Shown here in pieces: positions 18,001 to 55,094 of a stretch of DNA of 64,000 nucleotides (the first letter of the stretch is position 1; every line of letters starts with the position of its first letter). Below the pieces are notes generated by a model that saw only the letters and a program-made list of their open reading frames with translations, made no database searches and was not told the DNA's origin. Both the position numbers and the translations under genes were made by a program. Origin of the DNA: Candidatus Bipolaricaulota bacterium (GTDB taxonomy: Bacteria > Patescibacteriota > Patescibacteriia > UBA11705 > DATKZF01); contig DATKZF010000003.1 in NCBI GenBank assembly GCA_035528115.1, positions 292,651-356,650 on the forward strand, given 5' to 3'.

Positions 18001-18078
18001 CGGGATGGGCGCATGCCCATCGTAGAGACGCGCCATGGCGCGTCTCTACGCGGCGGCGACCCGCCGCCGACCCGCGCG
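18001..18078. repeat. GC-rich nested palindromic element (copy 1 of 3)
   Basis: gatgggcgcatgcccatc, gtagagacgcgccatggcgcgtctctac, gcggcggcgacccgccgccg. The same core GTAGAGACGCGCC..GGCGCGTCTCTAC occurs at 50172 and 53987. Confidence 0.8.
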
Positions 18079-18081
18079 GTT

Positions 18082-19053
18082 TTACAACCCCATCACAAAC
18101 AAATCCAACAAAAGTTGCGGCGACCAGGAAGTGGATTTGAATTTTTTTTCAATCGATAAAAGCCGGCTGTAAATTTTTTTCAATTCTTCAAAAGTGAATC
18201 TGTCCGCCTGCTGCCAAGTCTTTTTGGCCACGAACGGGTGCAGTTTCAATTCCCTGGCCGCGAATTCCGGCGAACTTGTTCGGCCGCTGTTTTTAACGTC
18301 TTTGATCATCAAAATATTTCTGAATTGCCTGACAATCATGGTCAACAAATAAAATTGATTGGCGCCGCTGCCAAGTTGATCGGCCAAGAGCTTGCCGCTT
18401 AAAGCTTTATTTTTTACTGAAAGCGCGTCCACGAAATCGAAAATATTGTCGTTGAATTTTCCCTTGACCAAATCCTCGACATCTTTGACTGAAATTTCCC
18501 GATTCCGGCAATAGCTCGCCAACTTCTGAATTTCAGCGTCCAGCTGCCACAAATCATTGCCGACCAAAATTGCCAGCCGCTCAGCCGCCGAATTGGCAAT
18601 GGTCCCGCCGACCGAAGCGACTTGTTTTTTTATCCAATCATTTAGCAAAAAACCTTTGGGGCTGGCAAACGATTTTACTTCCGCCAAAGGCGCCTTAGCG
18701 AGCGCTTTGTAAATCTTGCTTCTTTTATCGATTTCGCCTTTTTGGGAAAAAATCACGAAAAATTTTTCCGGCAATTTTTCAACGCTCCCCAAAATCAATT
18801 CTTCTATTTTTTTATCTTGTTTTTTCGCGAAAAAATTTTTCAAAATAATCAATTTATTTTGGCCGAAAAGCGAATCGACCTGCAAAGCGTTCTTTAATGT
18901 TTGTTCGACATTCCCCTTTTCTTCAAAATCTATTTTTAGAATATTAAAATATCCGTATTTGTCTTCAAACAAGGTTGTCCATTTTTGAATTTGTTTTGAA
19001 ATCGCCCAGCCGTTTTCGCCTGACCAGACGTAGATTTGTTTTTTATCAACCAT
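18082..19053 (-). CDS. holA: DNA polymerase III delta subunit
   Basis: HolA-like sequence. The true start is probably MVDKKQIYVW; the upstream extension MQQQEIPAFAGMT is a translated hairpin repeat. Confidence 0.7.
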   Translation of the reverse strand: MVDKKQIYVWSGENGWAISKQIQKWTTLFEDKYGYFNILKIDFEEKGNVEQTLKNALQVDSLFGQNKLIILKNFFAKKQDKKIEELILGSVEKLPEKFFVIFSQKGEIDKRSKIYKALAKAPLAEVKSFASPKGFLLNDWIKKQVASVGGTIANSAAERLAILVGNDLWQLDAEIQKLASYCRNREISVKDVEDLVKGKFNDNIFDFVDALSVKNKALSGKLLADQLGSGANQFYLLTMIVRQFRNILMIKDVKNSGRTSSPEFAARELKLHPFVAKKTWQQADRFTFEELKKIYSRLLSIEKKFKSTSWSPQLLLDLFVMGL

Positions 19054-19075
19054 AATTAGACAATAACCTTTTGTG

Positions 19076-19146
19076 GATTCCCGCTTTCGCGGGAATGACT
19101 GCCGGGAGCGGAACAATGCCCTTTTTGTCATTCCCGCGAAAGCGGG
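19076..19146. repeat. Inverted pair of hairpins attcccgctttcgcgggaat / attcccgcgaaagcgggaat
   Basis: Two perfect 20-nt hairpins in opposite orientation. They generate the FAGMT-type spurious N-terminus. Confidence 0.7.
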
Positions 19147-19173
19147 AATCTCTTGCTGTTGCATTGCTGCTCC

Positions 19174-21900
19174 CTAATACAACTTCTCCAAATCCCTCCA
19201 ATTATCCCCGTAATCGGTTTCGACCGTGATCGGCACGCAGGTTTTGTGGATCTTCTCCATTTTTTCATCGATTATTTTCGCCACTTTTTCCAATTCTTTT
19301 TCCGGCACTTCGAAAACAAGCTCATCGTGAACTTGAAGCAGCATTTTTGTCTCGGGACTGATTTTTTTCAATTCTTTATAAACTTCAATCATGGCGATCT
19401 TTATCAAGTCAGCGGCCGTGCCCTGAATGGGCGTATTGATCGCTTCGCGCTCAGCCGCGGCCTTGATTTGCTGCACGCCCGAATGAATATCCGGGAAATA
19501 TCTTTTTCTGCCGAACATGGTTTCCGTGTAGCCGTTTTCGCGGGCGAATTCTTTGATGCTTTCCATGTATTCTTGAACACGGCTAAATGACCGGTAATAT
19601 TTATCGATAAATTCTTTGGCTCTTTGAATGGAAATGCCGGTTCTGGCCGCCAAACCGTACGCGCCCATGCCGTATAAAATGCCGAAATTAATCATCTTGG
19701 CTTCGCGGCGCATATCTTTGGTGACGTCTTCGAGCTTGACGCCGTGAATTTTGGCCGCGGTTGCCGTATGAATATCATGTCCGGCTTTGAAAATTTCTAT
19801 CATGTTCTCGTCTTTGGCGAGACAAGCGACCACTCGAAGCTCTACCTGGGAATAGTCCGAAGAAACCAGTTTGCTTCCGGGCGCGGCAATAAAAGCTTTT
19901 CTGATTTTCATGCCGAGCGTCGTTCTTTTCGGAATATTTTGCAAATTCGGATCGGAAGAAGACAGCCGTCCCGTGGCCGTGATCGTTTGATTGAAGCTGG
20001 TGTGCACGCGACCGTCCGGCTTGACCAGTCGCGGCAAGGCGTCGATATAAGTGGATTTTAATTTCGTCAATTCGCGATATTCGACTATCAATTCAATGAT
20101 GGCATGCTTGCCCAAAAGTTTTTCCAGCTCCCCGGCTGCGGTCGAAATGCCGGTCTTGGTTTTTTTCAGTCCTTCGGTCGGCAATTTCAATTTTTCGAAA
20201 AAAATCACTTTCAATTGCAACGGCGAATTGATGTTGAATTTTTCACCGGCTTGCTTGTAAATTTTTTTCTCGAGCTCGCCCAGTTTTTCTTCGAATTCTT
20301 CAGACAATTTTTTCAAATATTTCAAATCGAGTAAGACGCCGTTTTTCTCCATTTCCGCCAAAACGTAAATCAAAGGCATTTCCATTTTTTCGAGCAAATC
20401 AAACAGTCCGTTTTCTTTTAATCTCTTCTCCAAAATTTTGTAAATTCGATAAGAAATATCCGCGTCTTCGCAAGAATATTCCGAGACTTTTTCTTTGGCC
20501 ACTTCAAATAAAGATTTTTGTTCTTTGCCTTTGCCGATCAGCTCTTCAATGGCAATCATTTGATGCCCCAGCTCGCGAAACGCCAAATCATTCAAATTGT
20601 GGCCGCGAGATCCGGGATTTAAAAGATACGACGCGATCATGGTGTCGAAATACAACCCTTTGACTTCAAGACCCGCCGCTTCAATCACTTCAAAATCGAA
20701 TTTCAGGTTATGGCCGACTTTTTTTATCTCCTGATTTTTGAAAATGGATTTTAATTTTTCAAACCGCTCTTTGTCGTAAATCACGTAATAAGCTTTGCCC
20801 TCATGCCAAGAAAAGCTGACTCCCAAAAGTTTATTAAAAAAGGGATCCAAGCCATCGGTTTCGGTGTCAAACGCGAAAATATTTTGTTTTTTCAGATCCG
20901 CTAAAAACGACTCGAACTTTTCAGCCGTATCCACCAATCGGTAATCGAGATTTTCTTTGGTTTTGGCAATGACCTTTTCTTCCGTTTGGCCGGCAATCTC
21001 TATTTTTTCCAAACGGTTCATCAATGTTTTAAATTGCAATTTTTGAAACAGTTTGCTCACTTTTTCCAAATCAAAAGGTTTGACCTTGGAATCGGACAAT
21101 TTGAATTTAATCGGCGTGTCTTTGACCAAGGTAACCAATCTTTTACTCTCGAACGCCGCCTTTTTATTTTCTTTCAATAAATTAATCACCCGCGGCTTCA
21201 AGTTTTTCGACTTGGCCGTGTCTTTTTCCAATTCATCATATAAATTTTCCAGAGTGTCGAATTTATTCAGTAAATCAATAGCCGTTTTCTCGCCGATGCC
21301 CGGCACGCCCGGAATATTGTCCGAGGGGTCGCCGCGCAAAGCTTTGTAATCGATCATCTGTTCCGGACCCAAGCCGTTAAATTTTTCCCTGACTTCTTTT
21401 TCATTGTAAGTGATTGTCTCTGAAATTCCCTTATGCAAAGCGTAAACTTTGGTGTTATGGTCAACCAATTGCAAAGCATCCATGTCGCCGGTGACGATTA
21501 TCGACTCGACATCCGGGTTGTCAATGATTTTTCTATTGACCAAAGTGGCGATGATGTCATCGGCTTCATAACCCTTGAGATCGTAATAAGGAATTTTAAA
21601 AACATCCAAAATGTTTTTTACATCATCCAGCTGAGCGTACAATTCATCGGGCTGTTTCACTCTCTGCGCTTTATATTCTTTATACTCAATTTTTCGAAAA
21701 GTCGGTTCGCGCCGGTCAAAGGCCACGGCCAAATAATCCGGTTTCAAATCCGGATAAAGTCTCAGCAAAATCGAAGTAAAGCCGTAAGCGGCATTGATCA
21801 ATTTACCGTCTTCGGTGGTGAGCGGCGGCAAGGCGTGCCAAGCTCGATGCAAGATGGCATTGCCGTCGATAATGACGAATTTTTTCTTTTTTAAAGCCAT
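19174..21900 (-). CDS. polA: DNA polymerase I
   Basis: 5'-3' exonuclease N-terminus and a polymerase domain with DYSQVELRV...HD motifs. Confidence 0.92.
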   Translation of the reverse strand: MALKKKKFVIIDGNAILHRAWHALPPLTTEDGKLINAAYGFTSILLRLYPDLKPDYLAVAFDRREPTFRKIEYKEYKAQRVKQPDELYAQLDDVKNILDVFKIPYYDLKGYEADDIIATLVNRKIIDNPDVESIIVTGDMDALQLVDHNTKVYALHKGISETITYNEKEVREKFNGLGPEQMIDYKALRGDPSDNIPGVPGIGEKTAIDLLNKFDTLENLYDELEKDTAKSKNLKPRVINLLKENKKAAFESKRLVTLVKDTPIKFKLSDSKVKPFDLEKVSKLFQKLQFKTLMNRLEKIEIAGQTEEKVIAKTKENLDYRLVDTAEKFESFLADLKKQNIFAFDTETDGLDPFFNKLLGVSFSWHEGKAYYVIYDKERFEKLKSIFKNQEIKKVGHNLKFDFEVIEAAGLEVKGLYFDTMIASYLLNPGSRGHNLNDLAFRELGHQMIAIEELIGKGKEQKSLFEVAKEKVSEYSCEDADISYRIYKILEKRLKENGLFDLLEKMEMPLIYVLAEMEKNGVLLDLKYLKKLSEEFEEKLGELEKKIYKQAGEKFNINSPLQLKVIFFEKLKLPTEGLKKTKTGISTAAGELEKLLGKHAIIELIVEYRELTKLKSTYIDALPRLVKPDGRVHTSFNQTITATGRLSSSDPNLQNIPKRTTLGMKIRKAFIAAPGSKLVSSDYSQVELRVVACLAKDENMIEIFKAGHDIHTATAAKIHGVKLEDVTKDMRREAKMINFGILYGMGAYGLAARTGISIQRAKEFIDKYYRSFSRVQEYMESIKEFARENGYTETMFGRKRYFPDIHSGVQQIKAAAEREAINTPIQGTAADLIKIAMIEVYKELKKISPETKMLLQVHDELVFEVPEKELEKVAKIIDEKMEKIHKTCVPITVETDYGDNWRDLEKLY

Positions 21901-21912
21901 ATGGTCATTTGA

Positions 21913-21941
21913 ATTATAGCGTTTTATGATGAAATTTTCAA
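21913..21941 (-). promoter_or_regulatory. Sigma70 promoter TTGAAA-17-TATAAT for polA, near-leaderless
   Basis: -10 ends about 12 nt before the ATG; no RBS. Confidence 0.5.
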
Positions 21942-22010
21942 TGTTAGAGGGCTAATGTTAGGAATTACATCCACCTTTGGCCTTATGCTTGAGAAGATTG
22001 TATTTCGTAA

Positions 22011-22052
22011 CACTGTATTGAAAAAGCCCAATGGTCATGACCAAAGGGCTTT
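22011..22052 (-). terminator. Intrinsic terminator of the island-3 gene
   Basis: aaagccc...gggcttt hairpin followed by a T-run on the minus strand. Confidence 0.65.
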
Positions 22053-22067
22053 CGGGGGCGGGCCAAC

Positions 22068-23735
22068 CTAGTAGTTGCAGAAGTACCCGCCGTCGACCGT
22101 GTCAAACACCGCGTTGATGTTGGGGTACGTGGGCAAAACACACATGACTGCGTGTTCCCCTGGCGAAACGCAAGTCATGAATGGGGTCATCCCGGAAACC
22201 TCGTCCGGAGTGCCCGGATCGATGTACGCCGTAGGCGGGGGAGCCGACGTATTGCTGGTGATGCTCACCCATACCTTACCGGTCAGCGTCTCGCTGATCG
22301 GATCGCTTGACTGGACGTCGAACAACAGCGCTTTGTAATCCACGCAACTCGAATAAAACTCAAACACGTGGATTCCTGGACCAATCGCGATCTGGCAGTT
22401 GCCCGGCAATGTGGAGTTGCAGACCACGGTTCCGTCCAACCGCAGGGTAGACGACGGCTGGGAGGTGATCGGTACGGTCAGGTCTTCTGTGGCCGCGGCG
22501 AACGTCACGTCGAACGTGTTGTTCGTCGCATCGATGAACTCATCGAGAACGACCGGGACGAATCCCCAACTGTTCACGATGACCTCATGCTGTCCTTCCG
22601 GCACCTCCATGGAACATGGCGTGCGGCAGACAGCCGGCTCGTTGTCGATTGACACGACCGCGTCCGTGGGGGTGCTCGTCACCGTCAGGAGAACGGGCAG
22701 CATGGCCTCGAGCATGGCGTCCACGACGTAGTCGTTGTCCAAAAATGACTCAACCGTCTCGTCGTAGTACCCGTCGAGATTGAACACGTACGTATGAGCG
22801 CACGCGGTCTGCTCAACGGCCAGGCATGGAGTCGCTTCGCAAACAACTTCGCCGCCTTCAGTGACGGTCGCGCCGATCGGCTCGGACGTGAAATCGCCAA
22901 CCACGGTCAGCGGCACGAGTGTCACGTTGAACGCGAAGCTCGTTTCCGAGACCATGATCAAGATATCCTCCGAGACGAAGCACCCGGTCAAGTCAATGAT
23001 GTGCACGGTGTGCTGCCCCTCGGTCAGAGAGATCTCTGCCGGCGTATAGTTCGTGACCGTGTCATCATCTACTCGGAAATAGACTCCGATCGGCTCGGAC
23101 GTGATAGTCACGACCACCACGATCGGCGCAATGTCCGGCTGAACATCGACAGGAACCACGTCCACGGCCATGTCAACCGGCACATCCGGCTGCACGTCAG
23201 CCGGCACGTCCTCGGCCACGTCGATTAGCACGTCCGGCTGCACGTCGACCGGCGCGTCCTCGATCACGTCGGGCGTCACCTCCGGCTGAACTTCGGCCAA
23301 CGCGTCCTCGATCAGATCGACCGGAACGTCCGGCTGAACATCGACCGGAACATCTTCCACCAACTCCGGCGGAACGTCCGGCTGAACTTCGACCGGAATG
23401 TCCTCGACCACCTCGAGCGGCACATCCTCCGCCACTTCTACCGGAATGTCCTCGACCAGCTCGGCCGGCACATCCCGCGCGACGTCGAGCGGATGGAGAT
23501 CTCGCATGGGCCTGCTGTCAGCCTCTGCGTCTTCTTCCATGTCCGGAACGGTGGCGTCCTCCTTGATGTCCGGCAAGCGCGGGATGTCGGTGATGACCTC
23601 GAGGAAGTCCCCTCCGAAATCATGAGCCATTGCATCTTCCGTTTCGACCAGGCTCGGGCCGACCGTGGCCTCACTACCGCAAGCGGCGAAGAAAAGGCCG
23701 ACAAAAACAAAAAGAACAAATTGTCTCGGACTCAT
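22068..23735 (-). CDS. Secreted acidic-repeat lipoprotein with about five PEGA-like domains, GC-rich island 3
   Basis: RBS AGGAGGA-7-ATG; signal peptide plus lipobox-like FAACGS; about 120 aa of (E/D)DVPV(D/E)VQPDVP tandem repeats; repeated ITSEP..G..V..DG...G.TP..EGQH blocks. About 62% GC. Confidence 0.7.
   Translation of the reverse strand: MSPRQFVLFVFVGLFFAACGSEATVGPSLVETEDAMAHDFGGDFLEVITDIPRLPDIKEDATVPDMEEDAEADSRPMRDLHPLDVARDVPAELVEDIPVEVAEDVPLEVVEDIPVEVQPDVPPELVEDVPVDVQPDVPVDLIEDALAEVQPEVTPDVIEDAPVDVQPDVLIDVAEDVPADVQPDVPVDMAVDVVPVDVQPDIAPIVVVVTITSEPIGVYFRVDDDTVTNYTPAEISLTEGQHTVHIIDLTGCFVSEDILIMVSETSFAFNVTLVPLTVVGDFTSEPIGATVTEGGEVVCEATPCLAVEQTACAHTYVFNLDGYYDETVESFLDNDYVVDAMLEAMLPVLLTVTSTPTDAVVSIDNEPAVCRTPCSMEVPEGQHEVIVNSWGFVPVVLDEFIDATNNTFDVTFAAATEDLTVPITSQPSSTLRLDGTVVCNSTLPGNCQIAIGPGIHVFEFYSSCVDYKALLFDVQSSDPISETLTGKVWVSITSNTSAPPPTAYIDPGTPDEVSGMTPFMTCVSPGEHAVMCVLPTYPNINAVFDTVDGGYFCNY
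23093..23480. repeat. Tandem ~24-bp coding repeats (acidic DVPVDVQP array)
   Basis: cgtccggctgaacttcgaccggaa-like units iterated about 15 times. Confidence 0.75.
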
Positions 23736-24053
23736 GCTGTCATCCTCCTGTTGTTGCGCATGATTGATATATCGATATGTCAAACTGCTGACTTATTATA
23801 CTAGAACAAAATCGTATTCTTGTCAATTCCCCAAATTATTTCAAAAGCTCTGCCATTTTACAATATGTATGACTGATTGGAAAGTAAAAGTATTACAAAA
23901 AAATGTCCCGATCAAGGACACTTTTTCTACCGATTCATGCCATTCTTCGCTTCGCGAAGAATGGGGGCACGGACCCACCTTCGTCAAGACTACGGCAAGC
24001 AGGCGGGATTTGCACCCATGCATAGCGGTTTTGTCCCGATAAATAAATAAATT

Positions 24054-24128
24054 TGGAGGCACGGATGGGAATTGCACCCATGCGTTGCGGTTTTGCAGAC
24101 CGCTGCCTTACTGCTTGGCTACCGTGCC
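24054..24128 (-). tRNA. tRNA-Cys (GCA)
   Basis: Anticodon loop ctgcaaa, discriminator U, CCA encoded. Flanked by a 17-bp inverted repeat gataaataaataaattt, with partial self-duplicates at 24005..24037 and 24193..24232. Confidence 0.85.
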
Positions 24129-24300
24129 AACAAATTTATTTATTTATCGAGGATCCTCGAAAATTATAAAAATAAAGGATTTTTAATTTTCGGGACAGAC
24201 CGCTGCCTTACTAATTGGCTACCGTGCCTTAAAAAGATTAAAAATAAAAAAATATTGAATATCTATTTAATCTTATCATGCAAAAAGCAGGCTGTAAACA

Positions 24301-24326
24301 TAAAAGAAAAGCCCGCGGAAGCGGGC
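24301..24326 (-). terminator. Intrinsic terminator
   Basis: gcccgc-ggaa-gcgggc followed by a T-run on the minus strand. Confidence 0.65.
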
Positions 24327-24354
24327 ATTTTCTTCATATCGCGTTATATTATAA

Positions 24355-24912
24355 TTACTCAACAACCACTATTTTTACATTTTGCTTACCGAATTGAATG
24401 GCATCGCTTCTGTCTTTCATCCAGATATCGACACGGTTGGAATATCGTCTGTTCATACGATCATGAACAACGAATTCTTTATCACCGTATAATTCAGGAA
24501 TCTTAACCTTGGTGCCAAACGGCAAAAAGTTCGTGGCAATGACGTTTTCCTCGCCCGCGGCGCAAACGTTATAACCGTCGGCCGTAATACAAGGAGAAGC
24601 ATCGCACTGGTCAACCGTACTGGTATAAGCGGTAGCGGTCGTCCATAATTCGCCCTGCTTGGATTTCGGGTAAATAACCCTCTGTCTGACCAAGGCTTGA
24701 GTCTTAATCTTATCCTGTTTTTCCTTATAAGCGATTATATTCTCGGAAATAATATCTTTCTTATTGGCCGAAATCACGGAATTGATATTCCCTGAATTAT
24801 CGGTTTCTTTAGCCCAACTCGGCAAAGCGATATTGGTCAAAATCAACAAAACCATAACAAATAAGGAGATTTTGCTGATTTTGCGTAATTTTACGCTATT
24901 AAATATATTCAT
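24355..24912 (-). CDS. Secreted 3D-domain (MltA-like) cell-wall protein
   Basis: Signal/TM N-terminus; C-terminal TATAYTS...CDASPC...GT.V...DRMNRR...IW 3D-domain pattern. Confidence 0.55.
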   Translation of the reverse strand: MNIFNSVKLRKISKISLFVMVLLILTNIALPSWAKETDNSGNINSVISANKKDIISENIIAYKEKQDKIKTQALVRQRVIYPKSKQGELWTTATAYTSTVDQCDASPCITADGYNVCAAGEENVIATNFLPFGTKVKIPELYGDKEFVVHDRMNRRYSNRVDIWMKDRSDAIQFGKQNVKIVVVE

Positions 24913-25069
24913 ATATTATATGTTACTTAAGATTAAATTATAGCACAAATCGTTAAAAATGTCAATACCCCCAAACATACATCCACATACTATCATTTTC
25001 GCTTGACAATAGGCAATATTATAAGCTATTATTATTACTACGTTATTCGTAAAACATCTATATAACATT

Positions 25070-25480
25070 ATGTTAAAAATTATCTTGTCGAGAATAGGAA
25101 AAAAACATCAACCCTTTTATCGCATAACGGTTCTTGAAAAGAGCAAAGATCCGTGGGGAAATTATCTGGAAAAATTGGGTCATTACAACCCGAGAACAAA
25201 AGAAATAAAGTTGAATGCGGAGAGAATCAAGCACTGGATCGCGAACGGAGCCCAACCTTCTGCCACGGTTCACAATTTGCTGGTGAAGAACGAAATCATT
25301 TCCGGAAAAAAGGTTTCCGTAACGACAATCAGCAAAAAGCGACAAGCAAAGATGGCCGCAAAAAAAGCTGAAAGCGCGGCCAAAGAAGAAGCTGCCAAAC
25401 CGGCCGCGGAAATAAAAGAAGAAGCTCCGGCCGTTGAAGATACTCCCAAGGCGGAACAGACTGAAACTGAAAAAAAATAA
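25070..25480 (+). CDS. rpsP: 30S ribosomal protein S16 with a K/A/E-rich tail
   Basis: MLKIILSRIGKKHQPFYRI S16 signature. Confidence 0.85.
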   Translation: MLKIILSRIGKKHQPFYRITVLEKSKDPWGNYLEKLGHYNPRTKEIKLNAERIKHWIANGAQPSATVHNLLVKNEIISGKKVSVTTISKKRQAKMAAKKAESAAKEEAAKPAAEIKEEAPAVEDTPKAEQTETEKK

Positions 25481-25493
25481 ATTTATCACAAAA

Positions 25494-25528
25494 AAATCGC
25501 CCCTCGACCTAAATCGGGGCGTTTTTTA
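25494..25528 (+). terminator. Intrinsic terminator after rpsP
   Basis: cgcccc...ggggcg followed by TTTTTT. Confidence 0.7.
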
Positions 25529-25530
25529 TC

Positions 25531-25559
25531 TTGACAGAAAACCTGTATTTTGCTATAAT
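25531..25559 (+). promoter_or_regulatory. Consensus sigma70 promoter TTGACA-17-TATAAT
   Basis: Perfect hexamers and spacer; about 100-nt structured leader before the KH gene. Confidence 0.65.
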
Positions 25560-25660
25560 GGTTATAGATCCTTAAAAAGGGATTCTTCAGTAAATACCGC
25601 TGGTCTGGTCACCAGTAGATATTTCTGACTGAATTAAGAATTAAGCGCGAAAAGAATTTT

Positions 25661-25990
25661 ATGGCAGAAAAATTTGCTGACCAAGAGTTTGTTGAGTACC
25701 TTGTAAAGACGATCGTTTCTCATCCCGAAGATGTGCAAGTTGAACGAAAAGTTGATGAAATGGGAGTATTGCTTTCATTGACCATCAACGCGGAAGACAT
25801 GGGTTACGTCATCGGCAAACAAGGCAAAACAGCGAAGGCCATTAGAACTTTGCTGAAAATCGTCGGAGCGAAAAACAACGCTCGAGTCAACTTAAAAATC
25901 ATTGAACCGGAAGGCTCGACTCACGTTCGAAGACCGGAACCGGAAAGAGAAGAAGTTGACACCGACGTTGTTGATGATCTCAAGATCTAA
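25661..25990 (+). CDS. KH-domain RNA-binding protein (YlqC/UPF0109-like)
   Basis: GYVIGKQGKTAKAIRTL KH motif; conserved position after rpsP. Confidence 0.75.
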   Translation: MAEKFADQEFVEYLVKTIVSHPEDVQVERKVDEMGVLLSLTINAEDMGYVIGKQGKTAKAIRTLLKIVGAKNNARVNLKIIEPEGSTHVRRPEPEREEVDTDVVDDLKI

Positions 25991-26076
25991 ACAAATTTGT
26001 ATACTGCGAAAGCCACGGTAAAACGTGGCTTTTGTAATTTAAAAGGGCTACTGCTGTAAGTAGCCCGCGAGTAAGT

Positions 26077-27353: not shown

Positions 27354-27418
27354 ACCTAGTCGCCATAGCCTCTAGGTTTTTTCAATTCATAATCCAGATG
27401 ATATAATGATTTCATAAT

Positions 27419-30644: not shown

Positions 30645-30744
30645 CTTTACCACATTGATCTTTACAATAGAAAATTGATAGAAAGAAGTCCATTGTTTAC
30701 TTTTTTTCAGAGTTTTGACCAACTCTTTTCAAAATGGTCAAATT

Positions 30745-32231
<1,487 letters not shown>

Positions 32232-33025: not shown

Positions 33026-33102
33026 CGGGGTGTGGCGCAGTTGGCTAGCGCGCTTGCTTTGGGAGCATGAGGCCGTGGGTTCGAGTCCCACCACCCCGAC
33101 CA
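33026..33102 (+). tRNA. tRNA-Pro (TGG)
   Basis: Anticodon loop tttggga with one mismatch in the anticodon stem; acceptor CGGGGTG. Confidence 0.75.
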
Positions 33103-33162
33103 GCCTTCGCTCCTCCTCGCTCCGCTCGTCGGGGCTTCGGCTGGCGGGCCAGCCAAAAAAAT

Positions 33163-37274: not shown

Positions 37275-37316
37275 GGCGGCGGAAAGATCGAGATCTTTCC
37301 GCCGCCTTTTGATTTT
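37275..37316 (+). terminator. Intrinsic terminator of the island-5 gene
   Basis: ggcggcggaaagatcgagatctttccgccgcc followed by TTTTGATTTT. Confidence 0.75.
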
Positions 37317-47014: not shown

Positions 47015-48557
47015 TTTTTATAACCTTTCTAAATCTTATGTATTCGACCAATCTGATGCCGGCCCACTTGCCCAAAATCATATTGACGATAATGCACAAA
47101 AATATCACTTCGGGATAGCCGAGTAATATCGACTTGGTAAATTGCAAACTGGCGATCCAATAACAAAAGCTGGACAACACCAAAGTTTCCAGCGTCAGCA
47201 TGATCGCCGCCTTATTGCCTTTTTCAATTTGCACGGACACGAATTTTTCGGATAAAACAATGAGAATCAAAATCGGAAAAATGGAAATGGTGAGCATGCC
47301 GGCGTCTTTTATCATCGCGCCGCCAAGCAGCAAAGCGAAAATCGTTAAACTGACCAGGATCAAAATCAGCGCCATCCTGGGCAGATAAAGCAACCTTAAT
47401 TTTTTAGCCAGAATCCTGCCGATGCTGGCGATGGCGATAATAATGCCGAAAATAATCAAACCGTAAACAATGCCCGTGCCCAGAAACGATAAGGCGATGA
47501 TCGCGGGCGTATAAATGCCGAAGGCTTTAAATCCGATGAACTGCCGGCTGAATGATAAAATGGTGGCGATGACCGGCAAAACCAATAAAAGGTAAAGGGT
47601 GTTGATGGGCACGCCTTGATTGACCATGTAACTGATGGCGTAAGCCAAAAAATTCCAAGGCCGAAGCTGCTGTATTTCCCGCTGAGTATGAAGACCGATA
47701 ATCTGATACTCGATGTCGTCTTCTTTCAAATCGCGAAGCAATGAATCCAAATTAATAACCGTTACGGAGCTATTGATCGCGCTCTGGTCAGCCAAAACTA
47801 TAAATTGAGGTTCCACCAGATTGAACAATGTTTGCGCCAATCTGGAGGTGGAAGCGAATTTATTGGTTATGTTGATGATGACCTTGTTGGAAAAGCCGAA
47901 ATCGACCAAGCCCGTGCGGTCGGGAGACCCGGTGGCGCCCAACGCTTGCGCGGCGTCAATCATGGCATTGAGGCCGATATTGCCTTGCGTCCAAATAATA
48001 ATATTTTTCGCCTGTTTGATGTTTTCTTTTGATTCGATTATTTTTTGCGCCAACTCATTTTCCACGGCCAGGTCCAAATCCTTGGTTTCGTTTTTAATAT
48101 TCACGATCAAAATACCTTGGGTGCTGGAGATCATTTGCAGATTATTTATCTCTTCCGCGGAAATGGTGTGATCCGTGATTAAAATAATCAAATCTTTATC
48201 CACGGAAACAATAAATTGATCTACCGATTGTTCGTTGGTCAATTTATTTTGGAGAGTCAGGCTGGCTCGATAAAAACCCGGATTTTTGTAAGTGTAAACC
48301 GCTTCGCTGCCGGTCGCTCGTCCGTCATCGCCGAAATTCCAAATATATTCCACTTCCGAACCTTCGGGAACACTCGATCCGGCCGCTGAAAACAGCACCT
48401 GCCGGCCGACGACCACGTTACGGTCTCCGCCCGATACGGCTTTGAGGGGCACTTGCAATATTTCGCTTTGATTGTTTGTTTCAGCCGCGATCGCGGAATT
48501 TAATAACAGACCGCCGGCCATAAACGATAAAACCAACAAGGCTAAAAATTTTTTCAT
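46989..48557 (-). CDS. Secreted PKD-like domain fused to a 7TM membrane domain
   Basis: Signal peptide; VYTYKNPGFYRASLT PKD-like motif; seven C-terminal TM helices. Overlaps the ATP-grasp gene. Confidence 0.55.
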   Translation of the reverse strand: MKKFLALLVLSFMAGGLLLNSAIAAETNNQSEILQVPLKAVSGGDRNVVVGRQVLFSAAGSSVPEGSEVEYIWNFGDDGRATGSEAVYTYKNPGFYRASLTLQNKLTNEQSVDQFIVSVDKDLIILITDHTISAEEINNLQMISSTQGILIVNIKNETKDLDLAVENELAQKIIESKENIKQAKNIIIWTQGNIGLNAMIDAAQALGATGSPDRTGLVDFGFSNKVIINITNKFASTSRLAQTLFNLVEPQFIVLADQSAINSSVTVINLDSLLRDLKEDDIEYQIIGLHTQREIQQLRPWNFLAYAISYMVNQGVPINTLYLLLVLPVIATILSFSRQFIGFKAFGIYTPAIIALSFLGTGIVYGLIIFGIIIAIASIGRILAKKLRLLYLPRMALILILVSLTIFALLLGGAMIKDAGMLTISIFPILILIVLSEKFVSVQIEKGNKAAIMLTLETLVLSSFCYWIASLQFTKSILLGYPEVIFLCIIVNMILGKWAGIRLVEYIRFRKVIKNVEDAEKK

Positions 48558-48566
48558 ATTTTGTTT

Positions 48567-49070
48567 TTATTTCACTCTCAACATTTTTAAAGAATTTGAT
48601 GCGCAAATGGCCGCGGCCAGCGCGTCGGCCGCATGGCTTGGCGTCGGTAGAACGTCCATATTCAACAATATTTGAACCATTTTTTGAACTTGTGTTTTGT
48701 CGGCTCGGCCATAAGCGGCCAAAGCCTGCTTTATTTGCAAAGGCGTAAAAACCAAAACGGGCACGCTTGCCAAGCTGGCGGTCAAACTGATCACGCCGCA
48801 CGCTTGACTGACTTTCAAGGCACTTTTGGCATTCTTGGCGAAAAAAAGATCTTCGACGGATAAGTAGTCGGGCCGATATTTTTTAATAAGCTCTCCGAGC
48901 TTTTTGTGAATTTCAAGCAACCGATGGGAAAATTCAAGACCGCTTTCGGTATGAATACAGCCGTACTCCAACAAGGAATCTTGCCCGAGGATATTTGAAA
49001 TAACGCCGTAACCGGTGTCCGCCAAACCCGGATCGACCCCCAAAATAATTGTGGATTTAATTTTTGGCAT
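48567..49070 (-). CDS. ruvC: Crossover junction endodeoxyribonuclease RuvC
   Basis: ILGVDPGLADTGYGVI ... SHAADALA. Confidence 0.85.
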   Translation of the reverse strand: MPKIKSTIILGVDPGLADTGYGVISNILGQDSLLEYGCIHTESGLEFSHRLLEIHKKLGELIKKYRPDYLSVEDLFFAKNAKSALKVSQACGVISLTASLASVPVLVFTPLQIKQALAAYGRADKTQVQKMVQILLNMDVLPTPSHAADALAAAICASNSLKMLRVK

Positions 49071-49782
49071 TTGAATACACGCAGCTTATATCATCCGAGT
49101 CTTCCAGCGCTTCGATTATCTCTTCAAGCTTGGCCTTATCATCAGCCGATATTTCAACTTTTTCTTTGGAGATCCATTCGAGACCCGCGTAATCCGGCGA
49201 CAGGCCGGCTTGCCTGATTTCATTTTCCAAATTTTTCAAATTCTCGCGCGTCGTCAAAACCGTTAACCCGCCCTCTTCCGATTTAACGTCATCAGCTCCA
49301 AAATCTATGATTTCCAGAGCCACCTGGTCTTCTGATTTGCCAGCCAAGGCGTCCGCCGGTACTCTGATCACGCCTTTTTGTTCGAACATCCATTTCACCG
49401 AGTTGGCGCCGCCGAGAGCGCCGCCCATTTTATTGAAAACAGCCTTCACGTCGGAAACGGTTCGGTTGCGATTGTCCGTGGTTCCCTCGATTAAAAGTCC
49501 GACGCCCGCCGGACCGAAAGCTTCGTATAAAACTTCTTCGATAACATCTCCTCCCAGCTCTCCCGCGCCTCTGGCAATGGCTCTCTCGATGTTGTCTTTG
49601 GGCATATTGCTCGCGCGCGCTTGGTCAATGGCCAGCCGCAACTTAAAATTGGCCTCGGGATCTTTCCCTTCCCTGGCCGCCAGGATAATATTTCGCGCCA
49701 ATTTCGTAAAAACCGAAGCTTTCTTTTTGTCTGACGCTTCTTTTTGCCTGTGGGTCGTTGCCCACTTGGAATGGCCTGACAT
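49057..49782 (-). CDS. yebC: YebC/PmpR-family transcriptional regulator
   Basis: MSGHSKWATTHRQK start. The ORF-track N-terminal extension is spurious. Confidence 0.85.
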   Translation of the reverse strand: MSGHSKWATTHRQKEASDKKKASVFTKLARNIILAAREGKDPEANFKLRLAIDQARASNMPKDNIERAIARGAGELGGDVIEEVLYEAFGPAGVGLLIEGTTDNRNRTVSDVKAVFNKMGGALGGANSVKWMFEQKGVIRVPADALAGKSEDQVALEIIDFGADDVKSEEGGLTVLTTRENLKNLENEIRQAGLSPDYAGLEWISKEKVEISADDKAKLEEIIEALEDSDDISCVYSNAKN

Positions 49783-50171
49783 ATTCAAAAATAAAATATA
49801 AAATATAAAAAATAAAGAAAATGGAGGTCTTGCTTGAAATAAAACAAAGATTAGCGCCGCGAGGCTCGTATTAAATATACCAAAAACAAGTCTTAAAATC
49901 AAGCCGCCGGCACACTCAAGTATAGTTATACACACTTCTTAAATTTCTCTTGTTGCAAATTTTTCAAAAATTATGCAAGATAATAATAACACAAATTTGA
50001 ACTCGACTTTTATCGGCGGTATCGACAAGAAAAAATCAAAAACAGGAGGGGAAAATCTCTCTGTTTAAATAAAAACAAAAACGAAAATCTCCGCGGCCAT
50101 GCTTGGCGGAGATTTTCGTTTTATTCGTTAATTTGATGATATAATGATAAGGCAACGGGGCGCGGATATGC

Positions 50172-50213
50172 GGCCGCCGTAGAGACGCGCCGCGGCGCGT
50201 CTCTACGGCGGCC
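50172..50213. repeat. 42-bp perfect GC-rich palindrome (copy 2)
   Basis: ggccgccgtagagacgcgccgcggcgcgtctctacggcggcc. Confidence 0.85.
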
Positions 50214-50252
50214 CCCAAATGTTTCATGCAAAATATTTTCCCAAAAATAAAA

Positions 50253-51755
50253 ATGTCTCTTTTCTGGCAAACTATCATTGTTTTTTGTATCTCCTTGTTT
50301 TTATTTTCCCTGACCCAATTTCCCCACACGTTCTATGACCCGGACGGATTTTATCACGCCAAAATTTCCGAAACGATCGCCGAGCGCGGCCTTGTCAAAT
50401 CTTTTCCCTGGACGCAATTCGCCACGCTCAAAGACGGCTTTGTCGATCATCACCTCGGATTTCATCTGCTGATCGCGCCGCTAACCAAAATCTTCCCCTC
50501 GGAATACGCGCTCAAACTGGGCAACCTTTTCATCAATTCCGCTTTTGTCTCCGTATTTTTTCTTTTCCTCAAAAAAAATAAAATAAAATACTCCTGGCTG
50601 TTCACTTCATTTTTATTTCTAACCGCTCCGCTTTACGCCAGACTGAGCATGAATAAAGCCATTGGGTTGGCCCTGCTTTTGCTGATGTTTTTTATCTGGG
50701 CGCTTATGGCTGAAAAAAAATGGCCGTTGTTTTTCATCAGCGCTCTTTTTGTCTGCAGTTATGGCGGCTGGCCGATAAGCATTATCGTTTTAATTTGCTA
50801 TATCGTTGCCAGAATTCTTTTCCAAATAGTGGAAAATAAAAAAATGGATAAGAAATTAAAAAATCATTTACTCGGCGCCGCCTGCTTGACTTTGGCCGGA
50901 CTGGCGGCGGGCCTGGTGATCAATCCATATTTTCCGCAAAATCTGAATTTTTATTGGCAGCAAGTGGTTCAAATCGGCCTGATCAATTATCAAAATCAGC
51001 TCAACGTGGGCTCGGAATGGCTGCCTTATGATTTCATTACTTTGGCGGCCGGCACTTTTTTCCTCTGGGGCATTTTGATTTTTTCGCTGAAAGCGATTAT
51101 GGATCAAAAAGCAAAACTTAATTGGCGACACATTTTTCTGACCTTCTCTTTTATCATCTTTTTCGCCGTCACTTTGAAGTCGCGAAGGTATATCGAATAT
51201 TTCGCGCCATTTTTTATTCTCTACATCGCTTTTTTATCCCGTGAATTGGATTTGAAAAAATTGCTGGGAGGCCTCGGCGTCAAAATGAAATGGTTTTGCC
51301 TGTCTTTGACCGCTTTGTTGGCCGGACTGATCCTCGCCAATTTCAGCTCGACCATCCAAATATTTCAAACCAAGCACTCCGTTGACAAATTCAGCGGCGC
51401 CGCGGCTTGGCTGGCTGAAAACACGGCCGAAGGGTCAATTGTTTTTCACACCGATTGGGATGATTTTCCCATGCTGTGGTTTCACAATGACCGCAATTAT
51501 TATATCGGCGGCCTGGATCCGACATTCACCTATTTATTCAACCCGGAATTGTCGAAAAAATGGATGAGCATCTCTTCGGGCAGCCAAGCGGACGAACTTT
51601 ATCTAATAATTAAAAACGATTTTCAGGCAAACTATGTCTTTGTGGAGAAAAACAATCACGCGCTTTTTTTAAACAATTTGGAAAATAACTTTTTGGCTGA
51701 AAAAAAATTCGAAGACGCTGAAAGCGCAATTTTTCACCTTAAAAACAACGATTGA
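50253..51755 (+). CDS. Polytopic membrane protein, GT-C glycosyltransferase-like
   Basis: Multiple TM helices; start chosen at MSLFWQ. Confidence 0.5.
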   Translation: MSLFWQTIIVFCISLFLFSLTQFPHTFYDPDGFYHAKISETIAERGLVKSFPWTQFATLKDGFVDHHLGFHLLIAPLTKIFPSEYALKLGNLFINSAFVSVFFLFLKKNKIKYSWLFTSFLFLTAPLYARLSMNKAIGLALLLLMFFIWALMAEKKWPLFFISALFVCSYGGWPISIIVLICYIVARILFQIVENKKMDKKLKNHLLGAACLTLAGLAAGLVINPYFPQNLNFYWQQVVQIGLINYQNQLNVGSEWLPYDFITLAAGTFFLWGILIFSLKAIMDQKAKLNWRHIFLTFSFIIFFAVTLKSRRYIEYFAPFFILYIAFLSRELDLKKLLGGLGVKMKWFCLSLTALLAGLILANFSSTIQIFQTKHSVDKFSGAAAWLAENTAEGSIVFHTDWDDFPMLWFHNDRNYYIGGLDPTFTYLFNPELSKKWMSISSGSQADELYLIIKNDFQANYVFVEKNNHALFLNNLENNFLAEKKFEDAESAIFHLKNND

Positions 51756-53362
51756 ATCAAATGACCAAAAACATTTCGCAAATTATCAAAAGTTTTTCAA
51801 AAAAAGACTGGCTCTGTCTGTCTATTATTTCTTTGGTTTTGATTGCGATCGTTTCAATTACCTATATTTTCGGTTTGACTTCATCTGATGCCGATCATAT
51901 TTTCAACGGACGGCGCGCCACATCTCCCGGAGACACCTCGGTTTATTTTTCATACATCAATCAAGCGAAACAAGGCGACGGTTTTTTCATCAATCAATTC
52001 ACTTCCGAAAAAGACGAACTTAAAGTCTTCAATATCTTCTGGCTGATGGCCGGCAAATTCGCGGCCGTTTTCCGCCTGTCCGCGCCGGCAACCATGCTGG
52101 CGCTAAAAATTTTACTGGCGCCGATTTTTGTTTTATTTTGCTATGTCTTTTTGAGTTTGTTTTTTGAAAATAAACGCGTAAAGCGCCTCGCGCTGATTCT
52201 GATTTCATTTTCTTCCGGAGTCGGGCTTTGGTTCGGTTTTCTGAATGGAGAGCAAAATACTTTTTTGAAAGCGCCGATCGATCTGTGGGTGACGGAAAGT
52301 AATTTTTTCACTTCGTTTTTGCACTCGCCGCATTTCATTTTGGCCTGGACATTGCTTTTGATCGTTTTTTCTTTTTTCATTTTGGCCGTTCGAAACAATA
52401 ATTGGAAACAAAGCTTTCTGGCCGGCCTGACCGCGCTTTTTCTCTTTCAATTTCATCCCTATAATTTTCTGACGGTTTACGCGGTCTGCCTGACTTTCAC
52501 GATTTATGAAATTTTTCTTAAAAAAACATGGCGACCTTCGGTCCACTTTTTACTTCTGACCGTTGTTTCCGTTCCTTCCGTAATTTATCATTTTTTCACG
52601 CTTTCCGACACTCTCATCGCCGCGCGTTCCGCTCAAAACATCACCCTGACTCCCCCGCTCATTTACGTGGCTTTGGGCTTTGGAATATTTTTCCCTTTGG
52701 CGATTTGGGGCGTTTGGAAAATTTTCAAAAACAACATGGAAGACAAATATATTTTCCTTGTCATCTGGCTGTTGGTCGGTTTATTGCTGATATATTTTCC
52801 GGGTTTTCAATTTCAACGGCGCTTGCTTTTGGGTCTTCAAATTCCGATAATCATGTTGGCTTTCATCGGTCTTGGAAATTTCGTTGAAAAAACGGCTGAC
52901 AAAATAAAACGATCCAAACTGTCCGCCATGATCGCCGTGTATTTGGCCATGATTTTTATTTTGCCGACCTCTTTTTACCACCTTGCTTCCGATTTTTTAT
53001 ATTATTTCAATCACGAGCCTCTTTTCTATCAAACGTCCGAGCAAAAAAAAATCATTGAAGCAATAGAAGCGGACAATGGCCCGGTCAATATCATTATCTG
53101 CGAAGACATTCCTTTCGCCAATACTTTGCCGATTTATTTGCCGAATAAAATTTTTCTGGCTCACCTTCATGAAACGACTTTTTTCGAAAACAAAAAAAGC
53201 CTGCAAGCAAACTTTTTCAATCAAGCGATGACGCCGCTCGATGCTGAAAATTTTATTCGGAACAATTTTATCGAATATGTCATTTCAAAAAAACCGCTGC
53301 CTTATAATTTTCTGGAACCGATTATTGGCGGAGAAAAATATTTCTTATATCGAGTCAATTGA
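51752..53362 (+). CDS. Polytopic membrane protein, GT-C glycosyltransferase-like
   Basis: Multiple TM helices; 4-bp overlap with the upstream gene. Confidence 0.5.
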   Translation: MNQMTKNISQIIKSFSKKDWLCLSIISLVLIAIVSITYIFGLTSSDADHIFNGRRATSPGDTSVYFSYINQAKQGDGFFINQFTSEKDELKVFNIFWLMAGKFAAVFRLSAPATMLALKILLAPIFVLFCYVFLSLFFENKRVKRLALILISFSSGVGLWFGFLNGEQNTFLKAPIDLWVTESNFFTSFLHSPHFILAWTLLLIVFSFFILAVRNNNWKQSFLAGLTALFLFQFHPYNFLTVYAVCLTFTIYEIFLKKTWRPSVHFLLLTVVSVPSVIYHFFTLSDTLIAARSAQNITLTPPLIYVALGFGIFFPLAIWGVWKIFKNNMEDKYIFLVIWLLVGLLLIYFPGFQFQRRLLLGLQIPIIMLAFIGLGNFVEKTADKIKRSKLSAMIAVYLAMIFILPTSFYHLASDFLYYFNHEPLFYQTSEQKKIIEAIEADNGPVNIIICEDIPFANTLPIYLPNKIFLAHLHETTFFENKKSLQANFFNQAMTPLDAENFIRNNFIEYVISKKPLPYNFLEPIIGGEKYFLYRVN

Positions 53363-55094
53363 TCTTAAGCGGTTCGGTCAAATTTTCTATTTTTGAAAAA
53401 TTATTTTCGACGAAATATAAATTGTTCAAATACAAGCCGCCTTCGACTTCAACCGAATAGGCAAAAATTTCAGCGTCTTTTTCCCGCGAAACCGTCAATT
53501 CATCAGTAAACGGCCAAAACAGCCGTTTTTTTATGGTTTTCCCATCAATTTGATATTCAATCAGCATGGGCTTTTTATCTTCGCTTGCCTCAAAATTTTC
53601 AAGGTTGATTTTTACAAAATTAGCCTCATCAAAGGCAACCTCCTGTCCCGATTTTCCGTAAATCAAATATCTGTCTTTATTTTCCAGCAAAACAAGGCCG
53701 TTTTTTTTGATTTTTTCCAGCAACTCATCGCCACCGCTAGAATAATATTTTTGATAATACGGCCGATTGTCTTTTTGCAAATAAAAAGTCAGCAATTCGT
53801 CCTGATCAATGATCAAGTAATCCAACCCGGGCGTCTCGTATTTTTGATCGGAAAATTGTCGGTGGCCCCAAAAAATTCTGGTCGTTGAATAGACAACGTT
53901 TTTTTCGGACAAATAAACGGCCAAAGACGCGGGCGCGGCTACAATGGAATTTTCAATGGCCGTGGCCGGCGGCGCCGCCGCCGCCGTAGAGACGCGCCGC
54001 GGCGCGTCTCTACCCGCCCGCGCGAACGCGGGCGGCCACGGCCCGAAAAACCAATTTAAATAAATAATGGCCGCGATCAAAACAAACGGCGCCATTTTTT
54101 TGTAGGCGTTAAAAATAAAAATTTTGCCCGGCCGGTCATTTTTTAAAACCTCGATCAAAGCCAAATAGCAGGGAATAAAAAGCGGCGCGCCATAATGCAG
54201 ATTGGCGACCGGCGCGCCGAAGGCCAAGGCGATTTGCAAATAATAAAAAAGGCCGATAACCAGATATCTGGGACGCAGGAGCGGCAAAAAAACCAACGGC
54301 AAGAAAATCTGCACCAAAAGCTCCAGTTGTCCGAGGCTGAAAACGCGGCCAAGAACCGTGTGCCAATCAAAATAGACCAAAAATTTGCTGGCCTCGCCGT
54401 TAAAATGCTTTATCGTCAGCCAACCGATAATTAAAAACAATAGACTAGAAAAAATAGTCGTCAAAACCTTGGGAAAAAACAAGGCTTTTTGGAAACCGAC
54501 AATCCTTCTTTTTTCCAAAAAGATAAACAGAGCAAAGCCGAGTAGCAAAATTCCCATATCTTCCCTGATCAGCAAAGTCAAAAACAAAAAAACATAATAA
54601 CCGGCTTGATTGTTTTCAAGATAAAAATAGTACAGCCAAAAAAAGAAAAAGAACAAAAACGGCAAAAAGTGAAATTCGAACAAGTTCATGCCGATGATGA
54701 ACGGATTGAATAAATAGGCGATCAAAACCAAAATTGTTTTATTGAAATTTAAACTCTTTCGACAAATCAAATACAACGGCCAAGCTCCGAGGCCGATAAA
54801 CAACGTTTGCAAAAAGAGCAACAAAATCGGTGATTGTAAAAAATGATACAGCGGATAAAATATAAAAAACAAAAAGCTGAAATGGTCCGCAAAATACTGC
54901 GCTCCCTGCAAAGGCACGAACAAAAAATTGCCCGCGTCAAGACTTTGGAACGCCTGAAAAAAAATGGTCAAGTCAAGACCGTTATAAAGATGGTTGTGAT
55001 ATTTGAAAAGGCAAACCGAAAAAACAGCGGCCACGTAAACCGTGATTGAGCAAATTAGAATCACTTTGCGTTTCATATGACTTAATGATATCAA
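53355..55094 (-). CDS. Polytopic membrane protein (DUF2079-like) carrying an in-frame GC palindrome insertion
   Basis: N-terminal TM bundle; palindromic element at 53961..54040 encodes GRDAPRRVSTAAAAPPATA in frame. Confidence 0.5.
   Translation of the reverse strand: MISLSHMKRKVILICSITVYVAAVFSVCLFKYHNHLYNGLDLTIFFQAFQSLDAGNFLFVPLQGAQYFADHFSFLFFIFYPLYHFLQSPILLLFLQTLFIGLGAWPLYLICRKSLNFNKTILVLIAYLFNPFIIGMNLFEFHFLPFLFFFFFWLYYFYLENNQAGYYVFLFLTLLIREDMGILLLGFALFIFLEKRRIVGFQKALFFPKVLTTIFSSLLFLIIGWLTIKHFNGEASKFLVYFDWHTVLGRVFSLGQLELLVQIFLPLVFLPLLRPRYLVIGLFYYLQIALAFGAPVANLHYGAPLFIPCYLALIEVLKNDRPGKIFIFNAYKKMAPFVLIAAIIYLNWFFGPWPPAFARAGRDAPRRVSTAAAAPPATAIENSIVAAPASLAVYLSEKNVVYSTTRIFWGHRQFSDQKYETPGLDYLIIDQDELLTFYLQKDNRPYYQKYYSSGGDELLEKIKKNGLVLLENKDRYLIYGKSGQEVAFDEANFVKINLENFEASEDKKPMLIEYQIDGKTIKKRLFWPFTDELTVSREKDAEIFAYSVEVEGGLYLNNLYFVENNFSKIENLTEPLKIN
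53961..54040. repeat. GC-rich nested palindromic element (copy 3), located inside a CDS
   Basis: ggccgtggcc...gccgtagagacgcgccgcggcgcgtctctac...ccgcccgcgcgaacgcgggcgg...ggccacggcc. Confidence 0.8.

Follow-up and report, generated by a model that had tools for sequence, protein, structure and literature searches.

The 64,000-nt stretch analysed here (the window: contig DATKZF010000003.1, positions 292,651 to 356,650 of the forward strand, filed under Candidatus Bipolaricaulota bacterium) contains three GC-rich palindromic elements that share a perfectly conserved core. These elements are very probably repetitive extragenic palindromes (REPs) of the double-foot type, from the family that co-occurs with TnpA_REP subclass 2.4 (group 4 of the RAYTs, the tyrosine transposases associated with REPs), a single-strand DNA transposase of the Y1/HuH type that is encoded in this genome. 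The analysis shows the sequence identity with REPs found within and around RAYT genes, the RAYT of the genome itself, the architecture of the elements and the in-frame replacement of part of a protein-coding gene by one of them.

The core (GTAGAGACGCGCC-NN-GGCGCGTCTCTAC, 28 nt) is exact at all three sites of the window, at 18022-18049 (copy 1), 50179-50206 (copy 2) and 53986-54013 (copy 3). Its chance expectation is zero: no match was found in 100 dinucleotide-preserving shuffles of the window. All three cores are double-foot, with a GTAG foot at the 5' end and a complementary CTAC foot at the 3' end, and thus both DNA strands offer the same GTAG-plus-hairpin substrate. The stem arms are 13-21 nt long and perfectly complementary, and the composites around the cores have 60-86 nt and 78-86% GC, in a window with 44.9% GC. 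Single-strand folds of copies 1, 2 and 3 have energies of -47, -33 and -49 to -52 kcal/mol, respectively, with z scores of -6 to -10 versus shuffles; in copies 1 and 3, either strand can form an 8-bp outer stem that closes three hairpins. Direct reading of the core shows that, on either strand, only one of its three frames is closed; the open ones give VETR-x-GASL and RDAP-x-RVST. An earlier note, made from the letters of the window, had described three perfect cores within longer GC palindromes, and both the cores and the nesting are real. It had the sites right too, but the natural limits of the elements are slightly wider (17997-18078, 50157-50216 and 53958-54043), and its contrast between GC-rich elements and their surroundings holds against a higher background than the roughly 40% it had assumed.

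Judged by its sequence, the core family is not private to the window's genome, but common to many phyla. In a scan of 185,579 species-representative genomes, with the left arm and part of the right arm as query, the same 28-mer was found at 120 or more genome loci. Among the loci listed, many are from Cyanobacteria (Coleofasciculus, Scytonema, Fischerella, Nostocaceae, Planktothrix); others are from Anaerolineae, rumen Bacteroidales, Rhodothermales, Ignavibacteriota, Desulfuromonadales and, within the Patescibacteria, from Parcubacteria, Falkowbacteria and Peregrinibacteria, so that Cyanobacteria, Bacteroidota, Chloroflexota, Patescibacteria and others are represented. The flanks of the copies are unrelated, indicating that the conserved unit is only the palindrome of ~28-30 nt. 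The loop of the 63 complete copies among these loci is mostly AT (51 copies) and sometimes GC (6 copies). Many cyanobacterial copies keep the left foot alone (GTAG and hairpin, then GGGA, GGAA and similar), which is the classical single-foot REP form. Open reading frames (ORFs) of considerable length read through the core at roughly a dozen loci, including a Peregrinibacteria valS gene that is confirmed by NCBIfam. A megablast search with a 30-mer found no match among PLSDB plasmids and INPHARED phages, and the core is present in one of 2.9 million viral contigs; no vehicle for its transfer is therefore identified. A full-text literature search for the core sequence matched cloning primers only.

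Clustering of the ORFs over all core loci identified one cross-phylum family that overlaps the palindrome: proteins of 182-200 amino acids with the motifs PNHVHGI (HuH), WQ and YIxNNP, which match Pfam Y1_Tnp and NCBIfam REP_Tyr_transpos (REP-associated tyrosine transposase) and are named 'REP element-mobilizing transposase RayT' by JGI. When a profile of 20 homologous sequences was compared with the PDB, the sole relative was TnpA_REP of E. coli (4ER8), with an alignment that covers the HuH and tyrosine motifs. Core and Y1 transposase gene occur together at six loci (our handles L015, L039, L078, L099, L120 and L129); cores flank the gene in the manner of a REPtron at L015, L078, L099, L120 and L129, being 22-50 nt before the start codon and sometimes directly after the stop codon. 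In addition, the RAYT genes of these loci always have a core in frame inside the gene, between HuH and tyrosine, that reads VETRHGASL (AT loop) or VETRRGASL (GC loop). Such VET/ETR peptides follow the HuH motif in 144 of the 215 homologues that have one; the loop part varies (VETRNFASL, VETRYIASL, VETLHCNVST) and tandem partial copies are frequent. All-versus-all comparison of the ORFs at the 120 core loci listed found no gene that is linked to most copies; a RAYT is present at only five of these loci, as expected for elements that are acted on in trans.

The same combination has been described by Quentin, Siguier, Chandler and Fichant 2018 (PMC6006769) for TnpA_Y1 subclass 2.4, which corresponds to Bertels group 4: the proteins have a median of 194 amino acids and the motifs NH[IFV]H (HuH), WQ and YIxNNP, their REPs are 'long' or 'double foot' with 5' GT[AG]G and 3' C[TC]AC, and these REPs flank the gene and, uniquely to this subclass, are inserted in frame within tnpA_REP. 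The hosts are given as 'Cyanobacteria, Bacteroidetes and various phyla', and Bertels et al. 2017 (PMC5581495) report group 4 from 17 bacterial classes and as common in Cyanobacteria, Chlorobia and Caldilineae.

An enzyme of this kind is encoded in the genome of the window itself. HUT22164.1 (197 amino acids, on record as 'transposase') is 54% identical to the Falkowbacteria RAYT that was used as search query and is encoded on the same 762,837-bp contig as the proteins of the window (HUT22436-HUT22465), at a distance of ~270-300 gene numbers; tblastn detected no RAYT within the window, and there is none in 20 kb of added flanks. The protein has the motifs PNHMHGI, WQ and RYITNNP. A phmmer search of the PDB with this sequence alone had no match, and the profile of 20 homologous sequences was needed. 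Its gene (locus L127) contains a GC-loop core at 10319-10346 that reads VETRRGASL in frame, between HuH and Y, and this core is enclosed by an outer stem of 17-19 bp (AATGATGATGATTTGAC/GTCAAATCATCATCATT) encoding NNDDDLT ... SNHHHY. Another double-foot hairpin, GTAGGGAACAAATATTTTTGTTCCCCAC, is positioned 34 nt past the stop codon.

Seven dispersed copies of the core with unrelated flanks were found in this organism: the three of the window, two further ones (A and B) at L126:4877-4963 and L126:5952-6014, 3-4 kb upstream of the window, the one in the RAYT gene and one in L121, a sequence from the same JGI sample that we infer to be from the same organism. Five of these cores are located within 83 kb of contiguous sequence (three in the window and two upstream). 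Copy 1 (17997-18078, 82 nt, 78% GC) consists of an outer stem (CGCGCGGG/CCCGCGCG, 17997-18004 / 18071-18078), hairpin X (ATGGGC-GCAT-GCCCAT, 18005-18020), the core hairpin (18021-18050) and hairpin Y (CGGCGGCG-ACC-CGCCGCCG, 18051-18069); its core has an AT loop (GTAG-AGACGCGCC-AT-GGCGCGTCT-CTAC). It is found between the convergent genes rpsT (17667-17945) and holA (18082-19164, minus strand), encoding S20 and the DNA polymerase III delta subunit, 3 nt from the stop codon of holA. An ordinary bidirectional terminator-like hairpin of rpsT/holA (17961-17988) adjoins copy 1 but is outside the element, which itself is thus without a U-tract. Copy 2 (50157-50216, 60 nt, 79% GC) has a GC loop, a GGGG/CCCC outer stem and a small hairpin, with a 42-nt perfect palindrome (50172-50213) centred on the core. 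It is positioned in the 290-nt gap between yebC (49057-49935, minus strand) and an ORF with multiple transmembrane (TM) segments (50226-51755, plus strand). A promoter scan of the region 49900-50300 had no match; that copy 2 is in a 5' untranslated region remains our own reading of a putative TATAAT box at 50140-50145. A GTAG-footed hairpin of different sequence (GTAGG-GCGGAC-GCAT-GTCCGC-GTGTAG, 60733-60759, minus strand) in the gap between two minus-strand ORFs may be a REP of another type.

Copy 3 (53958-54043, minus strand, 86 nt, 86% GC) is inside the gene of a DUF2079 membrane protein (53355-55076, minus strand, 573 amino acids, HUT22464.1) and encodes residues 348-373. It has an outer stem (GGCCGTGG/CCACGGCC, 53958-53965 / 54036-54043), hairpin Y (53967-53986), a core with GC loop that reads (G)RDAPRRVST on the minus strand, and a second side hairpin (CCGCCCGCG-CGAA-CGCGGGCGG, 54014-54035). 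The ORF is continuous across the element, with the in-frame reading ...GPW PPAFARAGRDAPRRVSTAAAAPPATA IENS.... The best homologues are 47-48% identical, are mostly from Patescibacteria and align on both sides of copy 3. The interval from GPW to (D)HNS/IENS has ~20 residues in close homologues (e.g. KDFNFENTDKELENYLIEKV), and this native segment is kept by all 11 aligned homologues; in HUT22464.1, the same interval has 26 unrelated residues. The 86-nt composite thus adds only ~18 nt net (~6 residues), indicating that native codons were lost: judged by the alignment, copy 3 is no clean insertion but has replaced native sequence, and the frame happens to have been preserved. The conserved GPW codons (GGG CCG TGG) themselves form the 5' outer arm that the element has on the coding strand. 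The AlphaFold model of HUT22464.1 has a mean predicted local distance difference test score (pLDDT) of 77.9; scores under 50 coincide exactly with residues 345-374, a stretch that has the last TM helix (316-344) on one side and a C-terminal alpha/beta domain with a confident fold (from residue 378) on the other. According to this model, the element-coded segment behaves as a tolerated linker. Among 5.8 billion proteins there is no DUF2079 homologue closer than 48% identity, and the empty site can therefore not be reconstructed. The protein is filed in a 90%-identity cluster with an unrelated 52-amino-acid representative of helix-turn-helix type, an apparent clustering error.

The earlier note had thus correctly named the neighbours of all three copies and had correctly described the third as translated in frame between TM domain and C-terminal domain; its idea of an insertion within the gene is to be corrected to a replacement (indel), in which ~20 native residues have been displaced.

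How would such elements arise? The RAYT is expected to bind the folded hairpin on single-stranded DNA and to cleave and rejoin it at the foot, such that copies would be spread or rearranged in trans. Mobility catalysed by the RAYT is likely, by analogy with the published work on E. coli TnpA_REP (PDB 4ER8). Copies would survive at sites where their presence costs little, namely directly past stop codons, within spacers and in linkers of proteins. In this organism, the core travels inside a scaffold of ~85-90 nt that consists of conserved GC-rich ends and two side hairpins, and in the DUF2079 gene such a composite has replaced a linker segment of ~20 residues by 26 residues of low complexity, with the frame kept. 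In this clade, each RAYT gene has a substrate hairpin of its own built into it in frame; the enzyme is thus passed on together with its REP, and this co-inheritance is our explanation for feet and stem base (GTAGAGAC) that are letter-perfect across phyla.

Several observations weigh against this assignment. There is no copy of this core within 240 nt on either side of the HUT22164.1 gene; the protein does not reach the curated score thresholds of Pfam and NCBIfam, a shortfall that probably results from the domain being split by its internal REP; and the middle residue of its HuH motif is M and thus outside the published [IFV]. Furthermore, no pair of empty and filled sites was found as evidence of mobility in this lineage, and neither the conserved scaffold nor the replacement of native codons is accounted for by a simple cut-and-paste of the core. 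On its sequence we nevertheless assign HUT22164.1 to subclass 2.4 as the TnpA_REP of this genome, in spite of the M and of the scores below cut-off.

The scaffold is the basis of an alternative, namely that the mobile unit is the entire composite of ~85-90 nt, similar to a MITE (miniature inverted-repeat transposable element) with ATGGCGCGG/CCGCGCCAT as terminal inverted repeats, that is moved by a transposase other than the RAYT and has the core as cargo or as a nested element. Indeed, when brought into the same orientation, five composites from this organism (those of copies A, 1 and 3, of L121 and of L124:18980-19060) align with 75% column identity: their common layout has ATGGCGCGG...CCGCGCCAT at the ends, a hairpin X that varies, a core of the double-foot type and hairpin Y (CGGCGGCG-loop-CGCCGCCG), with hairpin Y and the ends conserved (the terminal inverted repeats in four of the five). 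The RNAalifold consensus is a four-way junction with 36 pairs; for 10 of these, one or more of the copies have a compensatory double change, including the outer stems of copies 1 and 3. Moreover, the composite L124:18980-19060, ~8.3 kb past the end of the window, has the same scaffold around a different double-foot core (GTAGGAACAGGGCAATGCCCTGTTCCTAC); it overlaps the stop codon of a Wzy_C gene, and a related hairpin follows the RAYT gene (L127, ~10630). When 241 million metagenome records were scanned for hairpin Y together with the core, the only matches were L121, which shares its JGI sample with the RAYT locus, and a single half-match by chance, indicating that the scaffold is private to this organism while the core is cosmopolitan. 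However, it is only the core and not the scaffold that is common across phyla, copies 2 and B have no side hairpins, and apart from the RAYT there is no candidate transposase in 116 kb of this genome. The flanks of the seven copies are also without a consistent direct repeat (there are only occasional matches of 5-6 nt in AT-rich flanks); this absence of a consistent target-site duplication argues for a REP rather than a classical MITE, and of the earlier label 'MITE/REP-like' we keep the second half, for an element that is GTAG-footed, of RAYT type and dispersed. We consider movement of the composite by another transposase unlikely.

A second unusual feature are the outer stems. In the copies within coding regions, one arm of the outer stem consists of native codons (GPW in DUF2079, NNDDD in the RAYT and RFVL in the valS of Peregrinibacteria), the other arm is the inverted complement of the native arm and the native sequence downstream is lost. 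The valS copy (L060:2421-2446, metagenome-assembled genome contig JACRIE010000026.1) is in frame directly after the conserved NKLWNASRFVL and has a 9-bp outer stem with the native V-L-G codons as left arm; its loop is presumably no longer than in the valyl-tRNA synthetases of E. coli and B. subtilis. Among copies from the candidate phyla radiation (CPR), 10 of 16 have an outer stem that reaches 8 bp or more, versus 8 of 59 from elsewhere; within this genome, the outer stem is 7-19 bp long in each of the seven copies. The internal cores of three other CPR RAYT genes (L128, L129 and L130) are without long outer stems; the symmetry of the flanks is thus not a general pattern. It is conceivable, if rather improbable, that the REP spreads in this lineage not by simple insertion but, at a palindromic end that the RAYT has cut, by template switching or by priming through fold-back (snap-back). 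Such a process would symmetrise the flanks, build composites with three- and four-way junctions and write over protein linkers with the frame intact; the same pattern of outer stems would result if an insertion came first and selection then favoured pairing, and fold-back or template switching is a minority reading.

Even less probable is that the elements are structured RNA or DNA signals selected by the host, for example stabilisers of mRNA 3' ends, terminators or protein-binding sites, with their repetition reflecting this function. The folds are very stable, the consensus has the 10 compensatory pairs, and most copies are within a few nucleotides of a stop codon (holA, ileS, NIF3, Wzy_C), such that the host may use them as mRNA 3' structures. 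However, no copy is followed by a U-tract, with the rpsT hairpin 17961-17988 being the only one selected by a terminator scan; one copy is within the coding region of DUF2079 and one within the RAYT gene; and covariation in perfect palindromes can equally arise at the DNA level. The Rfam 15 covariance models have no match at the elements, neither with gathering nor with E-value thresholds, and all matches in E-value mode are below gathering and on neighbouring terminator-like hairpins. Finally, one assembled contig (Logan L123) ends exactly within a core, showing that the palindrome disturbs assemblers, but assembly artefacts (collapsed or chimeric palindromic reads), which the earlier note had considered for the case that only three copies exist, have next to no probability and are effectively refuted: there are more copies outside the window, an independent ENA assembly is 100% identical over 53299-64000 of the window (10.7 kb, copy 3 included), seven contigs of 0.2-1 Mb carry the neighbouring proteins, the DUF2079 frame is intact across copy 3 and the core is present in isolate genomes such as Scytonema NIES-4073 and Fischerella PCC 9431.

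The result places an odd family of GC spikes in a small, AT-leaning genome of CPR type with a known system, RAYT and REP, and extends this system to Patescibacteria. One and the same hairpin of 28 nt is kept letter for letter from Cyanobacteria to CPR and is carried inside the gene of its transposase. For annotation, this is a warning: stretches of low complexity like RDAPRRVST or VETRHGASL within proteins derive from repeats. The fold-back process, if true, would add an as yet undescribed mutational mode of REPs, and a symmetrising of flanks, if genome-wide, would provide a handle on how REPs grow into mosaics and remodel protein linkers.

The window has further features. The gene content, together with the homologues of the DUF2079 protein, points to Patescibacteria/CPR and makes the NCBI label 'Bipolaricaulota' doubtful. 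A gene for a 393-amino-acid protein with a Cas_csx3 domain (PF09620; 782-1963, plus strand) in an island of 65% GC adjoins a tRNA-Ala (2354-2430) and an HrpA-like DEAD/HA2 helicase (2561-7000) and looks horizontally acquired. The 23S and 5S rRNA genes (10985-14164, minus strand) and the 16S rRNA gene (30744-32229, plus strand) are unlinked, ~16 kb apart on opposite strands, and six paralogues similar to pilins of type IV secretion systems are found at 55156-58332. There are also several repeats and hairpins. Two of 20 nt, ATTCCCGC-TTTC-GCGGGAAT and ATTCCCGC-GAAA-GCGGGAAT (19077-19096 and 19130-19149), are mutual reverse complements, 53 nt apart inside the 5' end of the holA ORF. A GC-rich tandem repeat with a unit of 24/48 nt (23157-23487, minus strand, ~7 copies, 75% matches), in a stretch of 56-58% GC, is inside the ORF 22068-23783, which encodes a PEGA-domain protein of 571 amino acids. 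A GC-rich imperfect structure (33094-33157) follows a tRNA-Pro. The perfect hairpin GGCGGCGGAAAGATC-GA-GATCTTTCCGCCGCC with a 15-bp stem (37275-37306), followed by TTTT, is terminator-like and has the motif GGCGGCG in common with hairpin Y of the composites. A perfect tandem heptamer, TTTCATG (62404-62501, 14 copies, 100% match), ends 5 nt before a tRNA-Ser (62507-62596), and a 26-nt perfect GC palindrome, GCCACGTCGCTCGCGAGCGACGTGGC (62593-62618), overlaps the last bases of this tRNA.

Several known repeat systems can be compared with the elements described here. Small dispersed repeats (SDR) of heterocystous cyanobacteria, attributed to Elhai et al. 2008, are said to be 21-27 nt long, partly palindromic and mobile with no linked transposase, and reportedly occur in genes and spacers, nested in other repeats, and are restricted to Nostocaceae. 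Rickettsia palindromic elements (RPE) are likewise palindromic repeats in frame in protein genes, tolerated in surface loops and linkers, but as far as the review of Di Nocera et al. 2013 (PMC3733652) describes them, their sequence is unrelated, they are generally longer, CGTC-type or untagged and have no link to RAYTs; they are described there as insertions, while here native codons are lost as well. Classical REPs, the bacterial interspersed mosaic elements (BIMEs) and the REP doublets forming hairpins (REPINs) of E. coli and Pseudomonas (PMC3733652; Bertels and Rainey 2011, PMC3116915) are similar in the GTAG foot, the GC-rich hairpin and the association with RAYTs, in their sites just downstream of genes, in the clustering into larger foldable structures and in occasional in-frame copies within genes, for which Di Nocera et al. 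2013 name tRNA synthetases and polymerases among others. However, the classical REPs are single-footed, with the foot unpaired, and their sequences are limited to one species or genus, whereas the elements here have a foot on both sides and a 28-mer that is identical across phyla; and while a REPIN has two inverted REPs and a BIME alternating REPs, here one core and two unrelated side hairpins are enclosed by an outer stem. Closest is subclass 2.4/RAYT group 4 (PMC6006769, PMC5581495), with 5' GT[AG]G and 3' C[TC]AC feet, a long GC stem, dispersed copies, a cognate Y1 transposase of ~190 amino acids with NHxH, WQ and YIxNNP, an in-frame REP between HuH and Y of the transposase gene and hosts in scattered phyla. 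Differences are the Patescibacteria-like host, the scaffold with four-way junction, the absence of a flanking core within 240 nt of the RAYT gene and the HuH sequence NHMH. We found no paper that describes these elements in a Patescibacteria-like genome: this is a described system, RAYT and REP in the arrangement of PMC6006769, in a host group for which we found no prior description, with a scaffold that has been elaborated locally.

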